A stretch of 64,000 nt of DNA, from NCBI GenBank assembly GCA_041690355.1, contig JAWLHK010000002.1, forward strand, positions 124,001-188,000, read 5' to 3'. A program made the position numbers and the translations under genes. Origin of the DNA: a bacterium. Lineage in GTDB: Bacteria > J088 > JAWLBW01. Of the stretch, positions 18,389-26,479 are shown in pieces (within the stretch, counting starts at the first letter, position 1; each line of letters opens with the position of its first letter). The notes beneath the pieces are model-generated. The model did no database searches. It was not told the DNA's origin and saw only the letters and a program-made list of their open reading frames with translations.

Positions 18389-19021
18389 ATGCACACCACG
18401 GGGGCTTCGCCGAAGGGTCGCATCTGGAACATTCCGAACGTCTTGACGTTCTTCCGGATCGCGCTCATCGTCCCCTTTCTCCTGCTGATGTACCGGGAGC
18501 AGACCGACCCCGCTTCGTGGGCGAATTACTGGGCGTGTCTGCTCTTCTTCATTGCCTCGATGACCGACTGGGTCGACGGCGTACTCGCGCGGCGGTGGAA
18601 TCTGGTGACCCCGGTCGGGCAGCTGCTCGATCCGCTCGCCGACAAGCTGCTCGTCGCCGCCGCCCTGGTCATGCTCGCTGTTTTCAACGGCCTCGCCGGC
18701 GGCACCGTGGGCGCCCCGGCCTGGGTCGGCATCTTCATCATTGCGCGCGAGCTGGCCGTCACGGGCCTGCGCGGCATGGCCGGCGCCGAAGGGGTCGTCA
18801 TCGCGGCCTCGTCGGGCGGCAAGTGGAAGACTGTCATTCAGCTGCTCGCGCTCGGCGGCCTCATCATGCAGGGCATGCGCGCGGGAGACGCCGCCATCCC
18901 GCTCCCCGGCTTCGCGCTCGACCTCGGGCTCATCGGATATTACGGTCTCTTCGCGGCCCTCGCGCTCACGGCCTGGAGCGGCGCGATCTATTTCGTGCGT
19001 TTCCTTCGCGCCTTCGCGTGA
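18389..19021 (+). CDS. pgsA: CDP-diacylglycerol--glycerol-3-phosphate 3-phosphatidyltransferase
   Basis: NIPNVLTFFRI, TDWVDGVLARR, GQLLDPLADK, REL, GKWKT. Confidence 0.93.
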   Translation: MHTTGASPKGRIWNIPNVLTFFRIALIVPFLLLMYREQTDPASWANYWACLLFFIASMTDWVDGVLARRWNLVTPVGQLLDPLADKLLVAAALVMLAVFNGLAGGTVGAPAWVGIFIIARELAVTGLRGMAGAEGVVIAASSGGKWKTVIQLLALGGLIMQGMRAGDAAIPLPGFALDLGLIGYYGLFAALALTAWSGAIYFVRFLRAFA

Positions 19022-19043
19022 GCGCCCCGGCTGCCGCGCCGCG

Positions 19044-19073
19044 TTGACACTGCGGCAAGAGCTTCGTTATGCT
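19044..19073 (+). promoter_or_regulatory. Sigma70-type promoter for the flavoprotein operon
   Basis: TTGACA-18 bp-TATGCT. Confidence 0.6.
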
Positions 19074-19105
19074 GATTCGCGTCGGCTGCGCGGCGCCTCT
19101 GCCGC

Positions 19106-20674
19106 GTGGCGGCCGATTCCACGAACAGGTGTAGCTTGAGCCTCGACACGCTGCGCACGCGGATTCCGGACCTGGTCGTTTCCGTCGGCGAAGCAGACCG
19201 GATCAACTACGCGCGCGACCTCTACCCGCTGACCCACATCCGCATGCAGGACGCGCGGATTGGTACGCGGCCGCGCGCCGTCGTATGGCCGCAGTCGGCG
19301 GCGCAGATCGCGGCGCTCACGGCCTGGGCCGCCGAGACCGGCACGCCGCTGATACCCTACGGCGCCGGGTCGGGCGTATGTGGGGGAACGCTGGCGTCCG
19401 AAGATGCGGTCATCGTCGACCTCAAGCGCATGAACCGTATCGTCGACCTCGATGAGATTTCGCTGCTCGTGCGCGTGCAGCCGGGCGTGATCGGCGAAGA
19501 CCTCGAGCGCTGGCTCTCCCGGCGTGGTTATACGCTGGGGCACTTTCCCTCTTCCATTTACTGCTCGAGCGTCGGCGGCTGGGTCGCAACCCGTTCGGGC
19601 GGACAGTTCTCGACGAAGTACGGAAAAATCGAGGACATGGTCGTGGCCCAGGAGGTCGTTCTGCCCGACGGAGAAATCGTGCGCACCCGTACGACGCCGC
19701 GGGCCGCGACGGGTCCCGACTGGGATCAGCTCTTCGTCGGCAGTGAAGGAACGCTGGGCTTCATTACGGAAGTGACCCTGCGCGTGCATCCGGCGCCCGA
19801 GGTCCGGTGCTTCCGCGGCTTTCGCTTCGCCGATGTCCCGTCTGCGCTTGCGGGCATGCGCTCCCTTCTGCAGGCCGGGCTGCGTCCCGCGGTCACGCGC
19901 CTGTACGACGAGATCGATACCCTGGTCGCCGGCAACAGGAAGCCCGCGGCAGACGATGTCGTTCCCGGGTGGAAGCAGAAGTTCAGCCGTTCGCTTCGCG
20001 AGCACAACGTATTTCTGCAGCTCGCCCAGCGCACGGCGTTCCGCCACCCGAAAATGGTTCATGCCCTGGTCGACATGCTTCCCGGCAGCTGTCTGTTGAC
20101 CGTCATGTTCGAAGGCGCGGCCGGCCTGACCGAAGCCGAAGCCGACGAGGGCTGGCGGATTCTCTCCGAGCTGGGGGGGCGCGATCTCGGGCCGGCGCCG
20201 GGCGAAGCCTGGTATGCGACGCGCTATCACGTCAGCTACCGGCAGAGCGCCCTGTTCGCCGCCGGGGCCTTCGTCGATACCTGCGAAGTTGCGACGACGT
20301 GGGGCGCCATTGACGATCTGTACTTGGGCATGCTGCGCGCCGTGCAGTCGCAGGCGCTCATCATGGCCCACTTCTCTCATGCCTATCACGAAGGGGTGAA
20401 CATCTACTTCACGTTCGCCGCGACGGCCGGCACGCCCGCCGAGCAGGAGCGTCTTTACGAAACCATCTGGGAGCGGCTCATGGAGAGCTGCCTGCGGTAC
20501 GGCGGCACCATCAGTCATCATCACGGCATCGGATTCTCGAAGCAGCGCTGGCTCGCGCGGGAACTCGGCGGCGGGATGGAGGTCTTTCGCGCCGCCAAAC
20601 GCGCCATCGATCCGCGCGGGCTGCTCAATCCGGGCAAGATGGGCCTCGCGCTCTCCGAAGGGGAGCGCCGATGA
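19106..20674 (+). CDS. FAD-linked oxidoreductase, alkyl-dihydroxyacetonephosphate synthase (AGPS)-like, copy 1
   Basis: PYGAGSGVCGG, GHFPSSIYCSSVGGWVATRSGGQFSTKYGKIED, GSEGTLG, HFSHAY, ISHHHGIG, LNPGK. Start uncertain (GTG 19106 or TTG 19136). Confidence 0.85.
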   Translation: MAADSTNRCSLSLDTLRTRIPDLVVSVGEADRINYARDLYPLTHIRMQDARIGTRPRAVVWPQSAAQIAALTAWAAETGTPLIPYGAGSGVCGGTLASEDAVIVDLKRMNRIVDLDEISLLVRVQPGVIGEDLERWLSRRGYTLGHFPSSIYCSSVGGWVATRSGGQFSTKYGKIEDMVVAQEVVLPDGEIVRTRTTPRAATGPDWDQLFVGSEGTLGFITEVTLRVHPAPEVRCFRGFRFADVPSALAGMRSLLQAGLRPAVTRLYDEIDTLVAGNRKPAADDVVPGWKQKFSRSLREHNVFLQLAQRTAFRHPKMVHALVDMLPGSCLLTVMFEGAAGLTEAEADEGWRILSELGGRDLGPAPGEAWYATRYHVSYRQSALFAAGAFVDTCEVATTWGAIDDLYLGMLRAVQSQALIMAHFSHAYHEGVNIYFTFAATAGTPAEQERLYETIWERLMESCLRYGGTISHHHGIGFSKQRWLARELGGGMEVFRAAKRAIDPRGLLNPGKMGLALSEGERR

Positions 20675-22113
20675 CGACCGGCACGTTCGGCACGCAGCCT
20701 TCGGCGGCGCAGAGTCCGCCTTCGACGGGGCAGACTCCGATTGATGCGCTTCACGTCCTCTTTCCCCAGCGGGTTTCGACGCGGCAGGTCGATCGAGTCG
20801 TCTACCATCGTGATCTTTCTCCGGCGCAACAGCTTGCGGTGCGCGAGGGAACCGTCGGCATGCTCCCCGATGCCGTCGTCTGGCCCGAGAACGTTCAGGA
20901 CGTCACCTCTCTGCTGCGCCTCGCCAACGAACACGGGATCCCGATCGTTCCGTGGGGGGGCGGCAGCAGCGTCGTCGGCGCCGCCACTCCCGTGCGCGGG
21001 GGAATCGTCTGCGACCTGAAGCGCATGAACCGTCTCGTGCAGATGGATGAGCGCAGCCTGCTCTACGTGGCCGAGGCGGGTATCAACGGGGAAGATCTGG
21101 AGCGGCAGCTGAACGCCGCGGGATTCACGACCGGTCACTTCCCCTCGTCCATCTACTGTTCGACGCTGGGCGGCTGGCTGGCCACGCGCTCGGCCGGGCA
21201 GATGTCGACGCGGTACGGAAAGATTGAGGATCTGGTCGTCTCACTCGAGGCCGTGCTGCCTTCGGGTCGCGTCATTCAGACCAAGGCCGCCCCGCGTTCG
21301 GCCACGGGGCCCGACATCGATCAGCTGCTCGTGGGCAGCGAAGGTACGCTCGGCGTGATCACCCGCGCGACGATGCGCATGTTTCCGCTGCCCGAGTCGC
21401 GCCGGTTCGTCTGCACCGTGTTCGACAGCCTCAATGCGGGGCTCGAGGCCGTGCGCCTGCTGCTGCGGCGAGGTGTCCGGCCCGCGGTCGTGCGGCTCTA
21501 CGACGAGCTGGATACGACGCTGGCGCTTTCGTCGCTGGGGCTCGAGATGAACGGCAATCTGCTCATTCTCGGCTTCGAAGGGCGTCACGCCATGGTCGAG
21601 GCCGAAATGAATGCCGCCCGCCCGTTGCTTGCCGCCGGAGAAGATGCAGGCGAGGGGCCGGGGGAGTGGTGGTATGAGCATCGCTACCGTATTTCCTACA
21701 AACAGAGCGTCGTGCTTGCCGGCGAGCAGATGGTCGTCGATACCTGCGAGGTCGCGGCGACGTGGTCCCGCATCCGCGAGGTCTACGCAGCCGTACAGCG
21801 CGCGCTGGCCGGATACGTGACGGTGCTCGCCCACTTCAGCCACGCCTACCCCGAAGGCATCAGTATTTACTTCTCATTCGTGGGGAATGCCGACGGACAT
21901 CCGGCCGCCGGGTTTCATGCGGAACTCTGGCGCCGTACGCTGGATGCCGTGGTGTCGGCGGGAGGCAGCATTTCACACCACCATGGCATCGGGCTGCTCA
22001 AGGCCCCCTGGCTCGCCGCCGAACTCGGCGGGCTTCACGCCGTATTCGCGCGTCTGAAAAGAGAACTCGACCCGAACAACATCCTCAATCCCGGAAAGAT
22101 GGGGCTGCCGTGA
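20671..22113 (+). CDS. FAD-linked oxidoreductase, AGPS-like, copy 2
   Basis: Same motif set: GHFPSSIYCSTLGGWLATRSAGQMSTRYGKIED, HFSHAY, ISHHHGIG. ATGA overlap with copy 1. Confidence 0.87.
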   Translation: MTTGTFGTQPSAAQSPPSTGQTPIDALHVLFPQRVSTRQVDRVVYHRDLSPAQQLAVREGTVGMLPDAVVWPENVQDVTSLLRLANEHGIPIVPWGGGSSVVGAATPVRGGIVCDLKRMNRLVQMDERSLLYVAEAGINGEDLERQLNAAGFTTGHFPSSIYCSTLGGWLATRSAGQMSTRYGKIEDLVVSLEAVLPSGRVIQTKAAPRSATGPDIDQLLVGSEGTLGVITRATMRMFPLPESRRFVCTVFDSLNAGLEAVRLLLRRGVRPAVVRLYDELDTTLALSSLGLEMNGNLLILGFEGRHAMVEAEMNAARPLLAAGEDAGEGPGEWWYEHRYRISYKQSVVLAGEQMVVDTCEVAATWSRIREVYAAVQRALAGYVTVLAHFSHAYPEGISIYFSFVGNADGHPAAGFHAELWRRTLDAVVSAGGSISHHHGIGLLKAPWLAAELGGLHAVFARLKRELDPNNILNPGKMGLP

Positions 22114-23210
22114 TCGCAGAGTCCTACCGTAGAGAAATCCAGTACTGCACGTTCTGTCCCAAGATGTGCCGCTTCGTCTGTCCCACCGCCATCGCCGAGG
22201 CCCGCGAGACCGTGACGCCGACGGGCAAACAGACGCTGCTCTATCTTGTGCAGCAGGAGGCAGTGCCGCTCGACACCGAGGCGGTGCAGACCTTTCAGCA
22301 GTGCACGGGCTGCGGGCTGTGCACGGAATACTGTGACCATGACATTGACGTCTACCCGGTCATGCGCGAGGCGCGCGCCGAAGGCGCACGCCGCGGCGTC
22401 GTCACCCCCGAAGCCCGCAACGTGCTCGACAACTATCTTCAGTACGGGAATCCATACGGCAACCTGACCCCGGCGTACCTGAACCGGGTGGGCGCGCGCA
22501 TACTGCGTCAGGCACAGGTTTTCTACGTGCCAGATGTTTCGGCCATCGCGCGTCGACCCGAGGCGCTCGACGCCGTGCTGCTCGTGCTCGAAAAGCTGCA
22601 TCAGGAGAATGTCGCCCTGTGGCCCGGCCCGATGCTGGGCAGCGGCTATCTGTTGCACACGCTCGGCTTCGACGACGAGTTCCGGGCGCACGCGAAGGCG
22701 TTCGCCGACGTTGCGCGCGGCGCCCGCACGCTCGTCTTTGCTTCACCCCACGATGCCGAGACGGTGCGCAAACACTATCCGGCCGCCGGCGCGCAGCTCG
22801 AGGCCGAAGTGCTGACCGAAGCCGAGTGGCTTCTACGGATACTCGCGCACCAGGACGTGCCCGGACAATCTGCGCGGCGGGTACTCTATCACGACCCCTG
22901 CTCACTGGGGCGCGGCCTCGGCGTCTACGACGCGCCACGCCGGATCATCGAGGCGGTCAACGGTTCGCCGGCGCTCGAATTTTCCTGGTCCGGGGCCGAG
23001 AGCAAGTGCTGTGGATGGGGCGGCGGATATGCATTTACGGTTCCCGAGAGCGCCAAAATCGTCGCGCGGAACCGGATTGATGAAGCGGTCGAACAGACTC
23101 CCGACGAGATCGTCACCGGATCGACTTCCTGCGCCGTGCAGCTGCTGAGCGCGGCGGGACATTCGATGCCGGTCTTCGATCTCATGACCTGGCTGGCGGT
23201 GCGGCTATGA
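22110..23210 (+). CDS. Fe-S oxidoreductase subunit (GlpC/GlcF-like: 2x[4Fe-4S] + CCG domain)
   Basis: GTG overlaps the upstream stop. CTFCPKMCRFVCP, CTGCGLCTEYC, YHDPCSLGR, KCCGWGGG. Confidence 0.85.
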   Translation: MIAESYRREIQYCTFCPKMCRFVCPTAIAEARETVTPTGKQTLLYLVQQEAVPLDTEAVQTFQQCTGCGLCTEYCDHDIDVYPVMREARAEGARRGVVTPEARNVLDNYLQYGNPYGNLTPAYLNRVGARILRQAQVFYVPDVSAIARRPEALDAVLLVLEKLHQENVALWPGPMLGSGYLLHTLGFDDEFRAHAKAFADVARGARTLVFASPHDAETVRKHYPAAGAQLEAEVLTEAEWLLRILAHQDVPGQSARRVLYHDPCSLGRGLGVYDAPRRIIEAVNGSPALEFSWSGAESKCCGWGGGYAFTVPESAKIVARNRIDEAVEQTPDEIVTGSTSCAVQLLSAAGHSMPVFDLMTWLAVRL

Positions 23211-24178
23211 CGAAAACGACGACGACATTCTCGCGGCCCTGCTTCATCGTAAACCCGAACTCGGCGAACCGAAGCACCGGTCGCGACTGGGCTGACATCG
23301 AGGCGCTGGCGCGCCGCGTCTTTCCGGCGATGGAGACGCGCTTCACGCAGCGCACGTTCGAGGCGCCCGAACTCGTGCGCGCGGCGCTGCGCGAGGGAGC
23401 CGATCTGATCGTGAGCGTCGGCGGCGACGGTACGCACAATGAAGTCGTCAACGGTTTCTTCGAAGACGATCGGGTGATCAATCCCGACGCGGTGCTGGGT
23501 ATTCTGGCGCGGGGGACGGGCGGAGACTTCCGCCGCACGCTCGGGCTCGAGCGCGCCGTGGGCAGAACGCTTGTCGACGCGGTCGAGTCGCTGGGCCGCT
23601 GCCACGTCGCCCCGTGCGACGTGGGACGCATGGCTTACGTCACTTCGGATGGAAAGCCGGATGTTCGCCGCTTCATCAACATCACCAGCTTCGGCATCGG
23701 CGGTGAAGTTGATGCGGCCGTGAACCGCTCGACGAAAATCCTCGGCGGCAAGGCGAGCTTTCTCATCGGTTCGTTGAAGGCGACCGCGCGCTATCGCAAT
23801 CGCAATGTACAAGTCGTCGTCGACGGGGCCGAAGTCTATCGCGGTCGCATCTACAACGTCGCCGTCGCGAACGGAAAATTTTTCGGCGGCGGCATGATGA
23901 TCGCGCCCGATGCACGCATCGACGACGGACTCTTCGACGTCGTCATCTGCGCAGACTTTTCTTTCGGCGATGCGTTGCGTCTCGGTCGCACCGTCTATCG
24001 CGGCGAACATCGCAACATGGCGCGCGTGCGCTTTCTGCGCGGGCGCGAGGTCATTGCGACGAGTGAAGAAGAAGTGCTGCTCGACGTCGATGGCGAACAG
24101 CCCGGTCGGCTCGAGGCGCGCTTCACGATCGAACCGCAGGCGATTCGAGTCCTGCGTCGCGGCGATCCGGGAACGTGA
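23207..24178 (+). CDS. Diacylglycerol/lipid kinase family (YegS/DgkB-like)
   Basis: IVNPNS, VGGDGTHNEVVNG, GTGGDF, NGKFFGGGM, DDGLFDV, DVDGE. Confidence 0.9.
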   Translation: MTKTTTTFSRPCFIVNPNSANRSTGRDWADIEALARRVFPAMETRFTQRTFEAPELVRAALREGADLIVSVGGDGTHNEVVNGFFEDDRVINPDAVLGILARGTGGDFRRTLGLERAVGRTLVDAVESLGRCHVAPCDVGRMAYVTSDGKPDVRRFINITSFGIGGEVDAAVNRSTKILGGKASFLIGSLKATARYRNRNVQVVVDGAEVYRGRIYNVAVANGKFFGGGMMIAPDARIDDGLFDVVICADFSFGDALRLGRTVYRGEHRNMARVRFLRGREVIATSEEEVLLDVDGEQPGRLEARFTIEPQAIRVLRRGDPGT

Positions 24179-24205
24179 CCGAGATCAAACCGCGTTTCGA
24201 TCTCC

Positions 24206-24234
24206 TTGACACGATCTAGCAAATTGTATACATT
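24206..24234 (+). promoter_or_regulatory. Sigma70-type promoter, preceded by a hairpin at 24181-24204
   Basis: TTGACA-17 bp-TACATT in an AT-rich patch; inverted repeat GAGATC-AAAC-CGC-GTTT-C-GATCTC just upstream. Confidence 0.55.
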
Positions 24235-24665
24235 CAACTCAATTACCAAGCCAAGGATGAACGACCGATTGTTTCCCAAGCGCGAATACATTCAGGCTCA
24301 CTATCGTTCAGCTGTATCTCTTCCTTCTGCCGTTTTGCTGACGGCGCATTTCACGTTTCGCGCTGCCATCCTTGTTCGTGTGGAGTCGTTTGACGCGTAT
24401 GGGTTTTGAACCGCGTGCCGTTGACAACACGGTGCCCACGAACGCTCCTGAGCGCTTCATCCCCTTGTCCACTTTTTTCCGCTTTTCTGTCGCCGGGGCT
24501 CGTCCCCTGGCTTCGGTTGCGTCCGAGTTTCCTGTTGCTCGGACCCGGATCGCCCGATCCGTGGCAGCCGCCTATCATCTATATGGATATGCGCTGCCGA
24601 CAGCAGGACCCTACGGGGTCGAACCGGTTCGTTCGATGCCCTAACCCTATTGGAGGAGAACCAAA

Positions 24666-25001
24666 ATGGCCATTAAGACGAAGAAGGTCGTGGCTCGCGC
24701 CAAGACCGCCAAGAACGAAGTGAAGCCCGCCGCCAAGAAGCCTGCTGCCAAGAAGGCTGCCGCCAAGAAGCCGGCCGCCAAGAAGGCCGCTGCCAAGAAG
24801 CCGGCCGCCAAGAAGGCTGCTGCCAAGAAGCCGGCCGCCAAGAAGGCTGCTGCCAAGAAGCCGGCCGCCAAGAAGGCTGCCGCCAAGAAGCCGGTCGCCA
24901 AGAAGGCTGCCGCCAAGAAGCCGGCTGCCAAGAAGGCTGTTGCCAAGAAGGCCGTTGCCAAGAAGAAGCCGGCTGCCAAGAAGGCTGCCAAGAAGGCCTG
25001 A
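24666..25001 (+). CDS. Histone H1-like basic DNA-binding protein ([10 protein letters not shown] repeats)
   Basis: SD GGAGGAG at about 24652-24658. About 8 tandem [10 protein letters not shown] decapeptides (30-bp repeats). Followed by a terminator. Confidence 0.85.
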
Positions 25002-25222: not shown

Positions 25223-26479
25223 ATGCCAAAGTACGACAAGCTGGTTCCTCCCAAAGAGGGATCGAAGATCACGGTCAACAAGGACAAGAGCCTCAACGTC
25301 CCCGATGATCCGATCATTCCTTTCATTGAAGGTGACGGAACCGGTCCCGACATCTGGGCCGCCTCGGTGCGCGTCTTCGACGCGGCCGTGAAGAAGGCCT
25401 TCCGCGGCAAGAAGAAGATCGTCTGGTTCGAAGTCTTCGCCGGCGAAAAGGCCAACGAGGTCTATGGCCCGAATAGCTGGCTGCCCGAAGATACCCTGAA
25501 GGCGATCAAGGAATACATCGTCGCCATCAAGGGCCCGCTCACGACGCCGGTCGGCGGCGGCATCCGCTCGATCAACGTGACCCTGCGTCAGGAGCTCGAC
25601 CTGTATTCCTGCGAACGCCCGGTGCGCTACTTCCGCGGCGTGCCGAGCCCGATGAAGCAGCCCGAGAAACTCGACGTCAAAATCTTCCGCGAAAACACCG
25701 AAGACGTCTACGCCGGTATCGAGTGGAAGAGCGGCAGCAAGGAAGCCAAGGCCGTCATCGATTTCATCAACTCGAACTTCAAGAAGAACATCCGGGCCGG
25801 CAGCGGCATCGGCATCAAGCCGATCTCGAAGTTCGGCACGCAGCGCCTCGTGCGCCGCGCCGTGCAGTACGCCATCGACGCGAAGGCTTCGAGCGTCACG
25901 CTGGTGCACAAGGGCAACATCATGAAGTTCACCGAAGGCGCCTTCCGCGACTGGGGCTATGAGCTCGTCGAGAAGGAGTTCGGCGACAAGGCCGTCACCT
26001 GGGATCAGGTCGCGAAGAACCATGGCGGTAAAGTGCCCAAGGGCAAGATTCTCGTCAAGGATGTCATCGCCGACGCCATGTTTCAGCAGCTTCTTCTGCG
26101 CCCCGACGAATACTCGGTCATCGCCTCGCCGAACCTCAACGGCGACTACCTGAGCGACGCCTGCGCCGCGCAGGTGGGGGGCCTCGGTATCGCACCGGGG
26201 GCGAATGTCGGCGACAAGGCCGCCGTCTTTGAAGCGACGCACGGCACGGCCCCGAAGTATGCCGGGCTCGACAAGGTGAACCCCGGTTCGGTCATTCTCT
26301 CGGGCGTCATGATGCTCGAGCACCTGGGCTGGAAGAAGGCGGCCGACCTGATCGTCAACGCCATGGAAAAAGCCATTCAGCAGAAGACCGTTACCTACGA
26401 CTTCGCCCGCCAGATGGATGGCGCCAAAGAGCTCAAGTGCTCGGAGTTCGCCGACGCCATCATCAAGAACATGGGCTGA
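25223..26479 (+). CDS. icd: NADP-dependent isocitrate dehydrogenase (E. coli type)
   Basis: [58 protein letters not shown]; strong codon bias. Confidence 0.97.

Follow-up and report, generated by a model that had tools for sequence, protein, structure and literature searches.

A coupled operon of two flavoproteins, an Fe-S protein and a kinase

The 64,000-nucleotide stretch of bacterial DNA analyzed here, referred to as the window (contig JAWLHK010000002.1, positions 124,001 to 188,000; GTDB lineage J088; JAWLBW01), contains four consecutive forward-strand genes that had been read, from the sequence alone, as a possible ether-lipid operon with two paralogs of AGPS (also ADPS), the enzyme that makes alkyl-dihydroxyacetone phosphate (alkyl-DHAP). 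The first two genes code for FAD-linked flavoproteins, FAD1 (19106-20674, 522 aa) and FAD2 (20671-22113, 480 aa), both with FAD_binding_4 and FAD-oxidase_C domains (PF01565 and PF02913 in FAD1). The third, with a GTG start, codes for an iron-sulfur (Fe-S) protein with a Fer4_8 match and one CCG stretch (22110-23210, 366 aa), and the fourth for a lipid-type kinase of the DgkB/YegS/BmrU (DAGK_cat) family (23207-24178, 323 aa; TIGR00147, PF00781, and PF19279). Because consecutive genes overlap at their stop and start codons, with ATGA at 20671-20674, GTGA at 22110-22113, and ATGA at 23207-23210, the four genes form one translationally coupled operon (19106-24178), as the sequence-only reading had proposed. 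The module is real and conserved, and the comparisons described below show that a large part of what is called the 'AGPS homolog' family is probably a different enzyme, linked to an Fe-S carrier and a kinase, across many bacterial phyla and in Asgard, Bathyarchaeota, and Hadarchaeota genomes.

The Fe-S protein is assigned, from its sequence and its predicted structure, to the GlcF/GlpC/HdrD/EtfD type. In an alignment of 44 rows plus the family consensus all eight ferredoxin-type cysteines are kept, corresponding to two [4Fe-4S] motifs, and the second CCG domain retains four of its five cysteines (Cys264, Cys300, Cys301, and Cys341, with Ser338 substituted). The first CCG domain has none of the five, the corresponding residues being Val143, Gly177, Ser178, Ser212, and Asp215. 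The earlier description of an Fe-S/CCG protein thus holds for the two cluster motifs and the second CCG domain, but not for the first. An AlphaFold2 (AF2) model (pLDDT 93.0) has its best fold match in EtfD of M. smegmatis (9ojn; E 1.8e-14, TM-score 0.75 on the query), with LutA and HdrB next, and 9ojn is also the best solved match by sequence. A BLASTP alignment to E. coli GlcF (E 3e-8) covers the second CCG domain only, and the GlcF and GlpC equivalog scores fall far below their cut-offs. A homolog search for fused, longer forms of the protein returned two weak matches only, neither of them fused to a flavoprotein, which is weak evidence either way.

The kinase scores 149 bits against TIGR00147 (YegS/Rv2252/BmrU; cut-off 118.65) and also matches PF00781 (DAGK_cat) and PF19279 (YegS_C), in agreement with the lipid kinase of the sequence-only reading. 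Its best solved relatives are diacylglycerol (DAG) kinases, with DgkB (2qv7) at 78.1 bits, BmrU at 77.7 bits, and YegS weaker at 48.7 bits. To our knowledge, the characterised members of the DgkB/YegS family all act on lipids. The operon kinase is one of four DAGK_cat genes above cut-off in the genome and can therefore be a specialised copy. In M. tuberculosis an AGPS-like flavoprotein probably lies next to the DAG kinase Rv2252, and no functional study was among the matches listed in a literature search on Rv2251/Rv2252.

FAD1 and FAD2 compared with AGPS and with hydroxy-acid dehydrogenases

Both flavoproteins have AGPS as their best solved relative. In phmmer searches FAD1 scores 229.4 bits against Dictyostelium AGPS (2uuu) and 167.1 bits against mouse D-lactate dehydrogenase (LDHD), and FAD2 scores 245 and 150.2 bits, respectively. 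FAD1 aligns to 2uuu in one stretch (residues 39-512), including an insert of about 45 residues that follows RLYD. FAD1 and FAD2 share 44% identity, and FAD2 is an old paralog of FAD1. The AF2 model of FAD2 (pLDDT 78.9) finds AGPS (5ae3) first in Foldseek (E 1.1e-34, 32% identity), and LDHD follows closely; by fold Z mouse LDHD is as close or slightly closer (35.4 over 435 residues, its whole length, against 33.6 for AGPS). The ESM Atlas placed FAD1 only in generic 'FAD-binding oxidoreductase' clusters.

The residues of the active site separate the pair from GlcD. By column comparison, the equivalent of AGPS Arg352 lies in RLYD in FAD1 and FAD2 and in LEMMD in GlcD, and the equivalent of Tyr508 is the Tyr of IYF(T/S)F, with His in GlcD. 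The HHH loop, which we presume to carry functional weight in AGPS, reads SHHHGIG in both flavoproteins (shhhgvg in 2uuu) and SGEHGIG in GlcD. Both also carry the segment GH.P.S...S..GGW..TR..G, and, as had been noticed from the sequence, neither this segment nor the HHH motif is present in E. coli GlcD or GlcE. Mutagenesis of Dictyostelium ADPS is reported to show that Arg352, Tyr508, and Arg447 matter for catalysis (PMC3509576; the 2uuu chain numbering is offset by 3 from that of the publication), and the lactate-binding enzymes are described as having a GEHG motif and a conserved His (PMC4481167). Because AGPS-type equivalents of Arg352, Tyr508, and the HHH loop replace the residues of GlcD and D-lactate dehydrogenase, FAD1 and FAD2 are placed in the AGPS clade, and neither is predicted to be a glycolate or lactate dehydrogenase.

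A pattern scan using one genome per species gave 603 matching stretches, of which 593 were relatives; the analysis retained 78 loci. The tree built from them has 81 rows: 72 flavoproteins from the 78 related loci and the window, three other paralogs from the same genome, four homologs of one of these paralogs, and the GlcD and GlcE proteins of E. coli. Removal of three short rows preceded tree building, and the rows include neither an AGPS from a eukaryote nor MXAN_1676 of M. xanthus or PA3026 of P. aeruginosa. A branch with 100% SH-aLRT support parts the AGPS-clade rows from E. coli GlcD, GlcE, and the genome's own GlcD-like gene, and clustering with glycolate or D-lactate dehydrogenases was not seen. 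FAD1-type and FAD2-type proteins form separate clades (97% and 91% support), each holding one member of the tandem pairs at loci L011, L019, and L023, a pattern that would be expected of a long-standing heteromer such as GlcD/GlcE. The phylogenetic signal of AGPS has been reported as too low in a study of M. xanthus (PMC13012113).

These observations make it very improbable that the operon simply codes for a GlcDEF- or Dld-II-type dehydrogenase of glycolate or D-lactate that happens to lie beside an unrelated kinase. The subunit layout is indeed that of E. coli glcDEF, with two FAD subunits and an Fe-S/CCG subunit as the sequence-only reading had pointed out, and of D. vulgaris Dld-II as published (PMC4481167); moreover, TIGR00387 (the glcD equivalog) is the best NCBIfam match of both flavoproteins. 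However, their scores of 211.7 (FAD1) and 191.2 (FAD2) bits compare with a cut-off of 567.9, HHHG and Tyr stand where GEHG and His are expected, the well-supported branch excludes GlcD and GlcE, and the link to a kinase of the operon's type recurs in 18 of the 78 loci.

FAD1 and FAD2 also depart from canonical AGPS. The equivalent of Arg447 is Gln in both (VSYRQS in FAD1 and ISYKQS in FAD2), with the Arg or Lys one position earlier, and the phmmer and MAFFT alignments agree on this. Only about 30-38 residues precede the AGPS-alignable core, as residue 39 of FAD1 corresponds to 2uuu chain position 123 and residue 31 of FAD2 to 103, and the FAD2 model aligns only to residues 162-658 of guinea-pig AGPS and 95-584 of the Dictyostelium enzyme, so that the N-terminal region of AGPS is without a counterpart. 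We take this N-terminal part of AGPS to contain its gate-keeping domain. An extra domain found in ADPS only, with a gate-keeping helix, is reported to control access of lipid substrates (PMC3509576). Since both proteins have Gln at Arg447, lack the AGPS N-terminal region, and have a conserved Fe-S partner, they are most probably not canonical AGPS.

Better candidates for a true AGPS appear to be encoded elsewhere in the same genome. Two stand-alone AGPS-clade paralogs, C3 (571 aa) and C12 (534 aa), keep Arg447 (PYMRE/PYMRD) and extend further into the AGPS N-terminus than FAD1 and FAD2 do. C3 scores about 236 bits against AGPS and about 92 against its best GlcD/D-LDH-type match, and the corresponding values for C12 are about 225 and about 88. 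A 786-aa fusion of a FAR-type NAD_binding_4 reductase and an SDR domain (C20; L090:6415-8775, forward strand) could supply fatty alcohol to these stand-alone paralogs and perhaps reduce a keto group. The gene for C3 lies beside mutS (C3:38911-40626, reverse strand, the same gene as L087:8911-10626) and codes for a 567/571-aa protein with PYMRE kept; its family is 74-85% identical across metagenome-assembled genomes (MAGs) labelled Syntrophales, Thermodesulfobacteriota, Actinomycetota, and Smithellaceae, which is unusually tight across phyla. A homolog search with C3 returned no experimentally anchored AGPS. In a quick tree C3 and C12 are nested inside the Fe-S-linked forms, but the alternative was compatible with an approximately unbiased (AU) test (p-AU 0.53), and we dropped the idea that the stand-alone enzymes descend from the Fe-S-linked ones.

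AGPS exchanges an acyl for an alkyl group without net redox change, needs no electron carrier, and binds a DHAP ester. The operon could nonetheless specify a genuine alkyl-DHAP synthase complex, in which one or both flavoproteins would carry out this exchange on acyl-DHAP, the Fe-S protein would couple it to reduction of alkyl-DHAP or to oxidation of an acyl-glycerol 3-phosphate (acyl-G3P), and the kinase would salvage alkylglycerol. We regard this as unlikely. It would account well for AGPS being the best solved relative of both proteins, for the retained Tyr508, Arg352, and HHH equivalents, and for the unbroken FAD1 alignment with its insert; the FAR-type fusion is a possible source of fatty alcohol; and the AGPS of M. 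xanthus, MXAN_1676, whose operon is described as also containing acyltransferase- and reductase-type genes, is required for ether-lipid formation, which its deletion blocks (PMC13012113). However, the catalytic Arg447 that is Gln in both operon proteins is Arg in C3 and C12, which are the stronger AGPS candidates, the N-terminal region specific to AGPS is absent, and an electron carrier is conserved here for which AGPS has no need. In addition, the operon contains no acyltransferase or fatty-acyl reductase gene, and none recurs among the 78 loci.

Gene partners across related loci

Neighboring genes were counted on the same strand within 7 kb of the flavoprotein in the 78 loci, using family query sets. 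These loci span many bacterial phyla together with MAGs of Asgard, Bathyarchaeota, Hadarchaeota, and Nitrososphaeria. The Fe-S/CCG gene adjoins the flavoprotein in 62 of them, and in 56 if only the 65 loci that extend 1500 nt or more downstream are counted. Kinase genes are present in 40 loci, 18 of the DAGK type and 22 of the FGGY type, and no locus has both. The DAGK-linked loci include members of Bdellovibrionota, Myxococcota, and Bacillota as well as a Methylocystaceae MAG and a Bathyarchaeia MAG. Full-length tandem pairs as in the window occur in six loci (L010, L011, L019, L023, L026, and L072), and in 13 others the match of the second gene is confined to a part of the FAD-binding domain, resembling GlcE in this respect. 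The window's own lineage is thinly sampled, the 30 relatives searched including one of the same family and three of the same phylum; a FAD1 match at E <= 1e-40 was found in 9 of 31 genomes (the window's genome counted), and in the same-family genome the tandem pair is retained, with 68% identity.

Some of the DAGK-linked loci contain additional genes for lipid or glycerol phosphate metabolism. Lipid-type neighbors are pgsA in the window, PAP2 and MMPL in L068, a PLD-like gene in L056, and Lnt in L034. GlpA/GlpD or GlpB genes adjoin the flavoprotein in 11 of the 78 loci. In L068 the order on one strand is glpA, glpB, a small ferredoxin gene, FAD1, a FAD2 fragment, the Fe-S gene, the kinase, PAP2, and MMPL. 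In the Methylocystaceae MAG (L022:5095-7908, forward strand) a 937-aa reading frame contains Fer4, two CCG, BON, GlpA-type DAO, and Fer2_BFD domains; it directly follows the AGPS-like gene, with a DAGK-type kinase downstream, and joins the Fe-S partner to a G3P dehydrogenase-type flavoprotein, although the fusion is possibly an assembly artefact. Three Bacillota loci (L018, L020, and L025) have the order flavoprotein, Fe-S protein, kinase, and then ytxC, followed in L018 and L020 by threonyl-tRNA synthetase, which is a housekeeping neighborhood.

The FGGY-linked loci have a different character. Their kinases are xylulokinase-like, with two of four that were checked above the TIGR01312 cut-off, and their neighbors include IolB/KduI-, PfkB-, class II aldolase-, and isomerase-type genes, as in sugar-catabolic clusters. 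The FGGY-linked flavoproteins form their own clade with 100% support and have EHH in place of HHH. In FGGY-linked loci including L046, L050, L051, L054, and L059 (from Kiritimatiellota, Lentisphaerota, and Verrucomicrobiota) the 'Fe-S' partner keeps only four cysteines, equivalent to Cys13, Cys16, Cys20, and Cys75, and has no CCG cysteines; the one that was checked (L084) has no Pfam domain. Judging from these residues, it looks like a largely cofactor-less relic subunit.

The sugar-type sister clade raises the question of whether any lipid is involved. The operon could instead encode an oxidoreductase for a small, soluble, phosphorylated polyol such as G3P or a modified glycerol or tetritol phosphate, with the DAGK-fold kinase acting on a soluble alcohol. 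We consider this rather unlikely, though the likeliest of the alternatives. The sugar and polyol setting of the 22 FGGY-linked loci would fit it, as would the GlpA, GlpB, and GlpD genes that adjoin in 11 loci, the FAD2 model is compact like the soluble mouse LDHD, and the AGPS region missing from FAD1 and FAD2 is the one taken here to gate lipid entry. The kinase, however, has DAG kinases as its best solved relatives and comes from a family whose known members act on lipids, lipid genes recur beside the DAGK-linked form, and the mutual exclusion of DAGK and FGGY kinases suggests different substrates. Furthermore, the genome (4.64 Mb in 42 contigs, 100% complete) codes for a GlpK and a GlpD-like protein of its own, which already provide for ordinary glycerol breakdown and make a role with plain G3P less likely.

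The region immediately upstream of the operon contains pgsA, the gene for CDP-diacylglycerol--glycerol-3-phosphate 3-phosphatidyltransferase (18389-19021, forward strand, 210 aa), which scores 151.5 bits against TIGR00560 (cut-off 109.1) and also matches PF01066. This identity, as given in the sequence-only reading, holds, but the link drawn there between pgsA and the flavoprotein genes does not, and we have ruled out pgsA as a member of the module, since it adjoins in none of the 78 loci; it constitutes a separate upstream unit. The contig of the same-family genome begins at FAD1, so the 5' side is not visible there. Within the 84-nt gap between pgsA and FAD1 a promoter-like site, TTGACA-18-TATGCT (19044-19073, forward strand), matches the consensus at 10 of 12 positions. 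The TTGACA site reported earlier is thus present, but the count of such sites (two in 7.3 kb, compared with 1.0 +/- 1.2 in shuffled sequences) is not above chance. A search for sequencing runs covering 18389-24178, RNA runs included, gave none. On the 3' side (24180-25001), a leader of about 480 nt that begins at a TTGACA-17-TACATT site at 24206 precedes a gene for a histone H1-like (HC2) Lys/Ala-rich protein with AAKKPAAKK repeats (24666-25001, forward strand). An isocitrate dehydrogenase gene lies 3' of the operon both in the window (25223-26479, forward strand) and in L066 (11768-13018), a trace of shared synteny.

Proposed function and comparison with known systems

We tentatively propose, as the leading possibility though at somewhat less than an even chance, that the operon specifies an oxidoreductase resembling GlcDEF. 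It would act at C2 of a phosphoester of the G3P/DHAP type, probably a monoradylglycerol phosphate that the kinase produces. The kinase would phosphorylate a lipid alcohol based on glycerol at its free primary hydroxyl group, the most plausible such alcohol being a 1-acyl- or 1-alkyl-glycerol. The two AGPS-clade flavoproteins and the GlcF/GlpC/EtfD-type subunit would form an electron-transfer complex, in which the AGPS-type active site, with its Tyr base, Arg, HHH loop, and oxidised FAD, would interconvert the G3P and DHAP (2-keto) forms of the phosphoester. Quinone, or a partner flavoprotein such as GlpA, would accept or donate the electrons by way of the two [4Fe-4S] clusters and the remaining CCG site. 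The complex would thus be a net oxidoreductase, in place of the redox-neutral exchange catalyzed by AGPS. We infer the formation of this complex, its substrate, its direction, and its electron acceptor from the gene content and the residues described above.

Several observations point in this direction. A G3P/DHAP-type ligand is the natural guess because AGPS binds a DHAP ester, and the conservation of an electron carrier argues for net redox. A kinase in 40 of the 78 loci, of the DAGK or the FGGY type but never both, fits a two-step scheme in which the kinase determines the substrate and oxidation comes after its phosphorylation. The translational coupling of the four genes, the separate clades of FAD1-type and FAD2-type proteins, the G3P dehydrogenase genes beside the module in 11 loci (with L068 and the L022 fusion as examples), and the presence of GlpK and a GlpD-like gene elsewhere in the genome also count in its favor. 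Hints of a lipid substrate come from the DAG-kinase relatives of the operon kinase, from the lipid genes beside the DAGK-linked form, and from the P. aeruginosa operon containing PA3026, which is activated together with a phospholipase C.

Other observations weigh against the oxidoreductase proposal. The retained Tyr, Arg, and HHH loop fit true AGPS chemistry equally well. The first CCG domain is without its cysteines and the second has lost one; no membrane domain was matched in the Fe-S protein, and no membrane anchor or acceptor was identified. The pgsA gene, one of the lipid-type neighbors, lies beside the module in the window and in none of the related loci. With a sugar-type kinase in 22 of the 78 loci, the family cannot be called a lipid family overall, and a soluble compound might likewise be the substrate in the DAGK-linked branch. 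Finally, deletion of PA3026-PA3024 in P. aeruginosa is reported to give no phenotype (PMC8151288).

The sn-1 ether bond could also be formed or cleaved directly at the level of G3P by the flavoproteins and the Fe-S subunit together, although we regard this as improbable. In such a scheme the flavin would oxidise 1-acyl-G3P (or 1-alkyl-G3P) to the DHAP ester with the two electrons parked in the Fe-S clusters, the re-oxidised flavin would bring a fatty alcohol (alternatively, water or a fatty acid) into an exchange of the AGPS type, and return of the electrons would give the G3P product, the kinase feeding in alkyl- or acylglycerol. If correct, this would be an O2- and NADPH-independent route for ether-lipid synthesis (or for salvage or cleavage), without GNPAT or alkyl-DHAP reductase.

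The sequence-only reading is therefore partly supported. The AGPS relationship of the flavoproteins, with AGPS-type Arg, Tyr, and HHH, and the lipid-type kinase as partner are borne out, whereas the designation as an ether-lipid operon is without specific evidence, given the Gln at Arg447, the missing N-terminal region, the lack of acyltransferase and fatty-acyl reductase genes, and the FGGY kinases of the sister clade. This bears on how AGPS relatives are interpreted in environmental sequences, as any 'Agps homolog' is taken in metagenomic surveys to mean that ether lipids or plasmalogens can be made. Such surveys are described as scoring AGPS homologs by BLAST alone (PMC11868695; bioRxiv 10.64898/2026.06.23.733905), one of them with a threshold of E < 1e-30 and at least 30% identity (PMC11868695). 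Two markers part the module form from canonical AGPS: the motif Y[KR]Q as against canonical PY[IM]R[DE], and the absence as against presence of the N-terminal region. Knowing the substrate would either bring to light a new dehydrogenase of respiration or glycerolipid turnover, or explain how the unusual non-redox chemistry of AGPS came from a dehydrogenase. A relative of the module is on record from P. aeruginosa; particular to the operon in the window is the combination of a full-length tandem pair with a lipid-type kinase.

Our literature searches turned up no account of an AGPS-like complex with a linked Fe-S protein, but several known systems share parts of its design. AGPS itself (EC 2.5.1.26; PDB 2uuu, 4bby) is the closest solved relative of both flavoproteins in sequence, with the same VAO-type FAD domain and FAD-oxidase_C cap, the equivalents of Arg352, Tyr508, and HHH, and the GH.P.S...GGW segment. 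FAD1 and FAD2 differ from it in the Gln at Arg447 and the absence of the N-terminal region, and their genes differ in forming a tandem hetero-pair with a conserved Fe-S partner and no linked genes for acyl-DHAP or fatty-alcohol supply.

The closest studied cluster, compared through its published description only, appears to be PA3026-PA3023 of P. aeruginosa. According to that description, PA3026 carries an annotation as AGPS or as an enzyme acting on CH-OH groups, PA3025 is a GlpD homolog, PA3024 an FGGY protein, and PA3023 YegS-like, and the cluster is activated by GliR together with the phospholipase C PlcA; the authors proposed a link to glycerolipids (PMC8151288). The likeness thus lies in an AGPS-annotated FAD oxidoreductase clustered with a YegS-like DAG kinase and glycerol-phosphate genes. 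The P. aeruginosa cluster differs in its GlpD homolog and FGGY kinase and in having a single flavoprotein, and that description mentions no Fe-S/CCG subunit.

GlpABC, the anaerobic G3P dehydrogenase, is similar in passing electrons from a flavoprotein to a GlpC-type subunit with two [4Fe-4S] clusters and CCG domains, and in its reaction, G3P to DHAP; in addition, several loci have glpA or glpB genes beside the module, and the Fe-S partner of L022 carries a fused GlpA-type domain. However, its flavoprotein has an unrelated fold (DAO/GlpA as against VAO/AGPS), and there is no glpA or glpB in the window.

In architecture the closest precedent is the two-subunit Dld-II D-lactate dehydrogenase of D. 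vulgaris (DVU3027-28), reported as an FAD-linked oxidase and a 4Fe-4S/CCG subunit (PMC4481167), both encoded, as here, in one operon. E. coli GlcDEF likewise combines, in one operon, two FAD subunits with a subunit that has two [4Fe-4S] clusters and CCG domains, and the cut-down second FAD subunit of 13 related loci resembles GlcE. The operon in the window differs from both in its AGPS-type active-site residues in place of GEHG and His, in a glcD score far below cut-off, in the cysteine-less first CCG domain of its Fe-S protein, and in the kinase that is attached to it.

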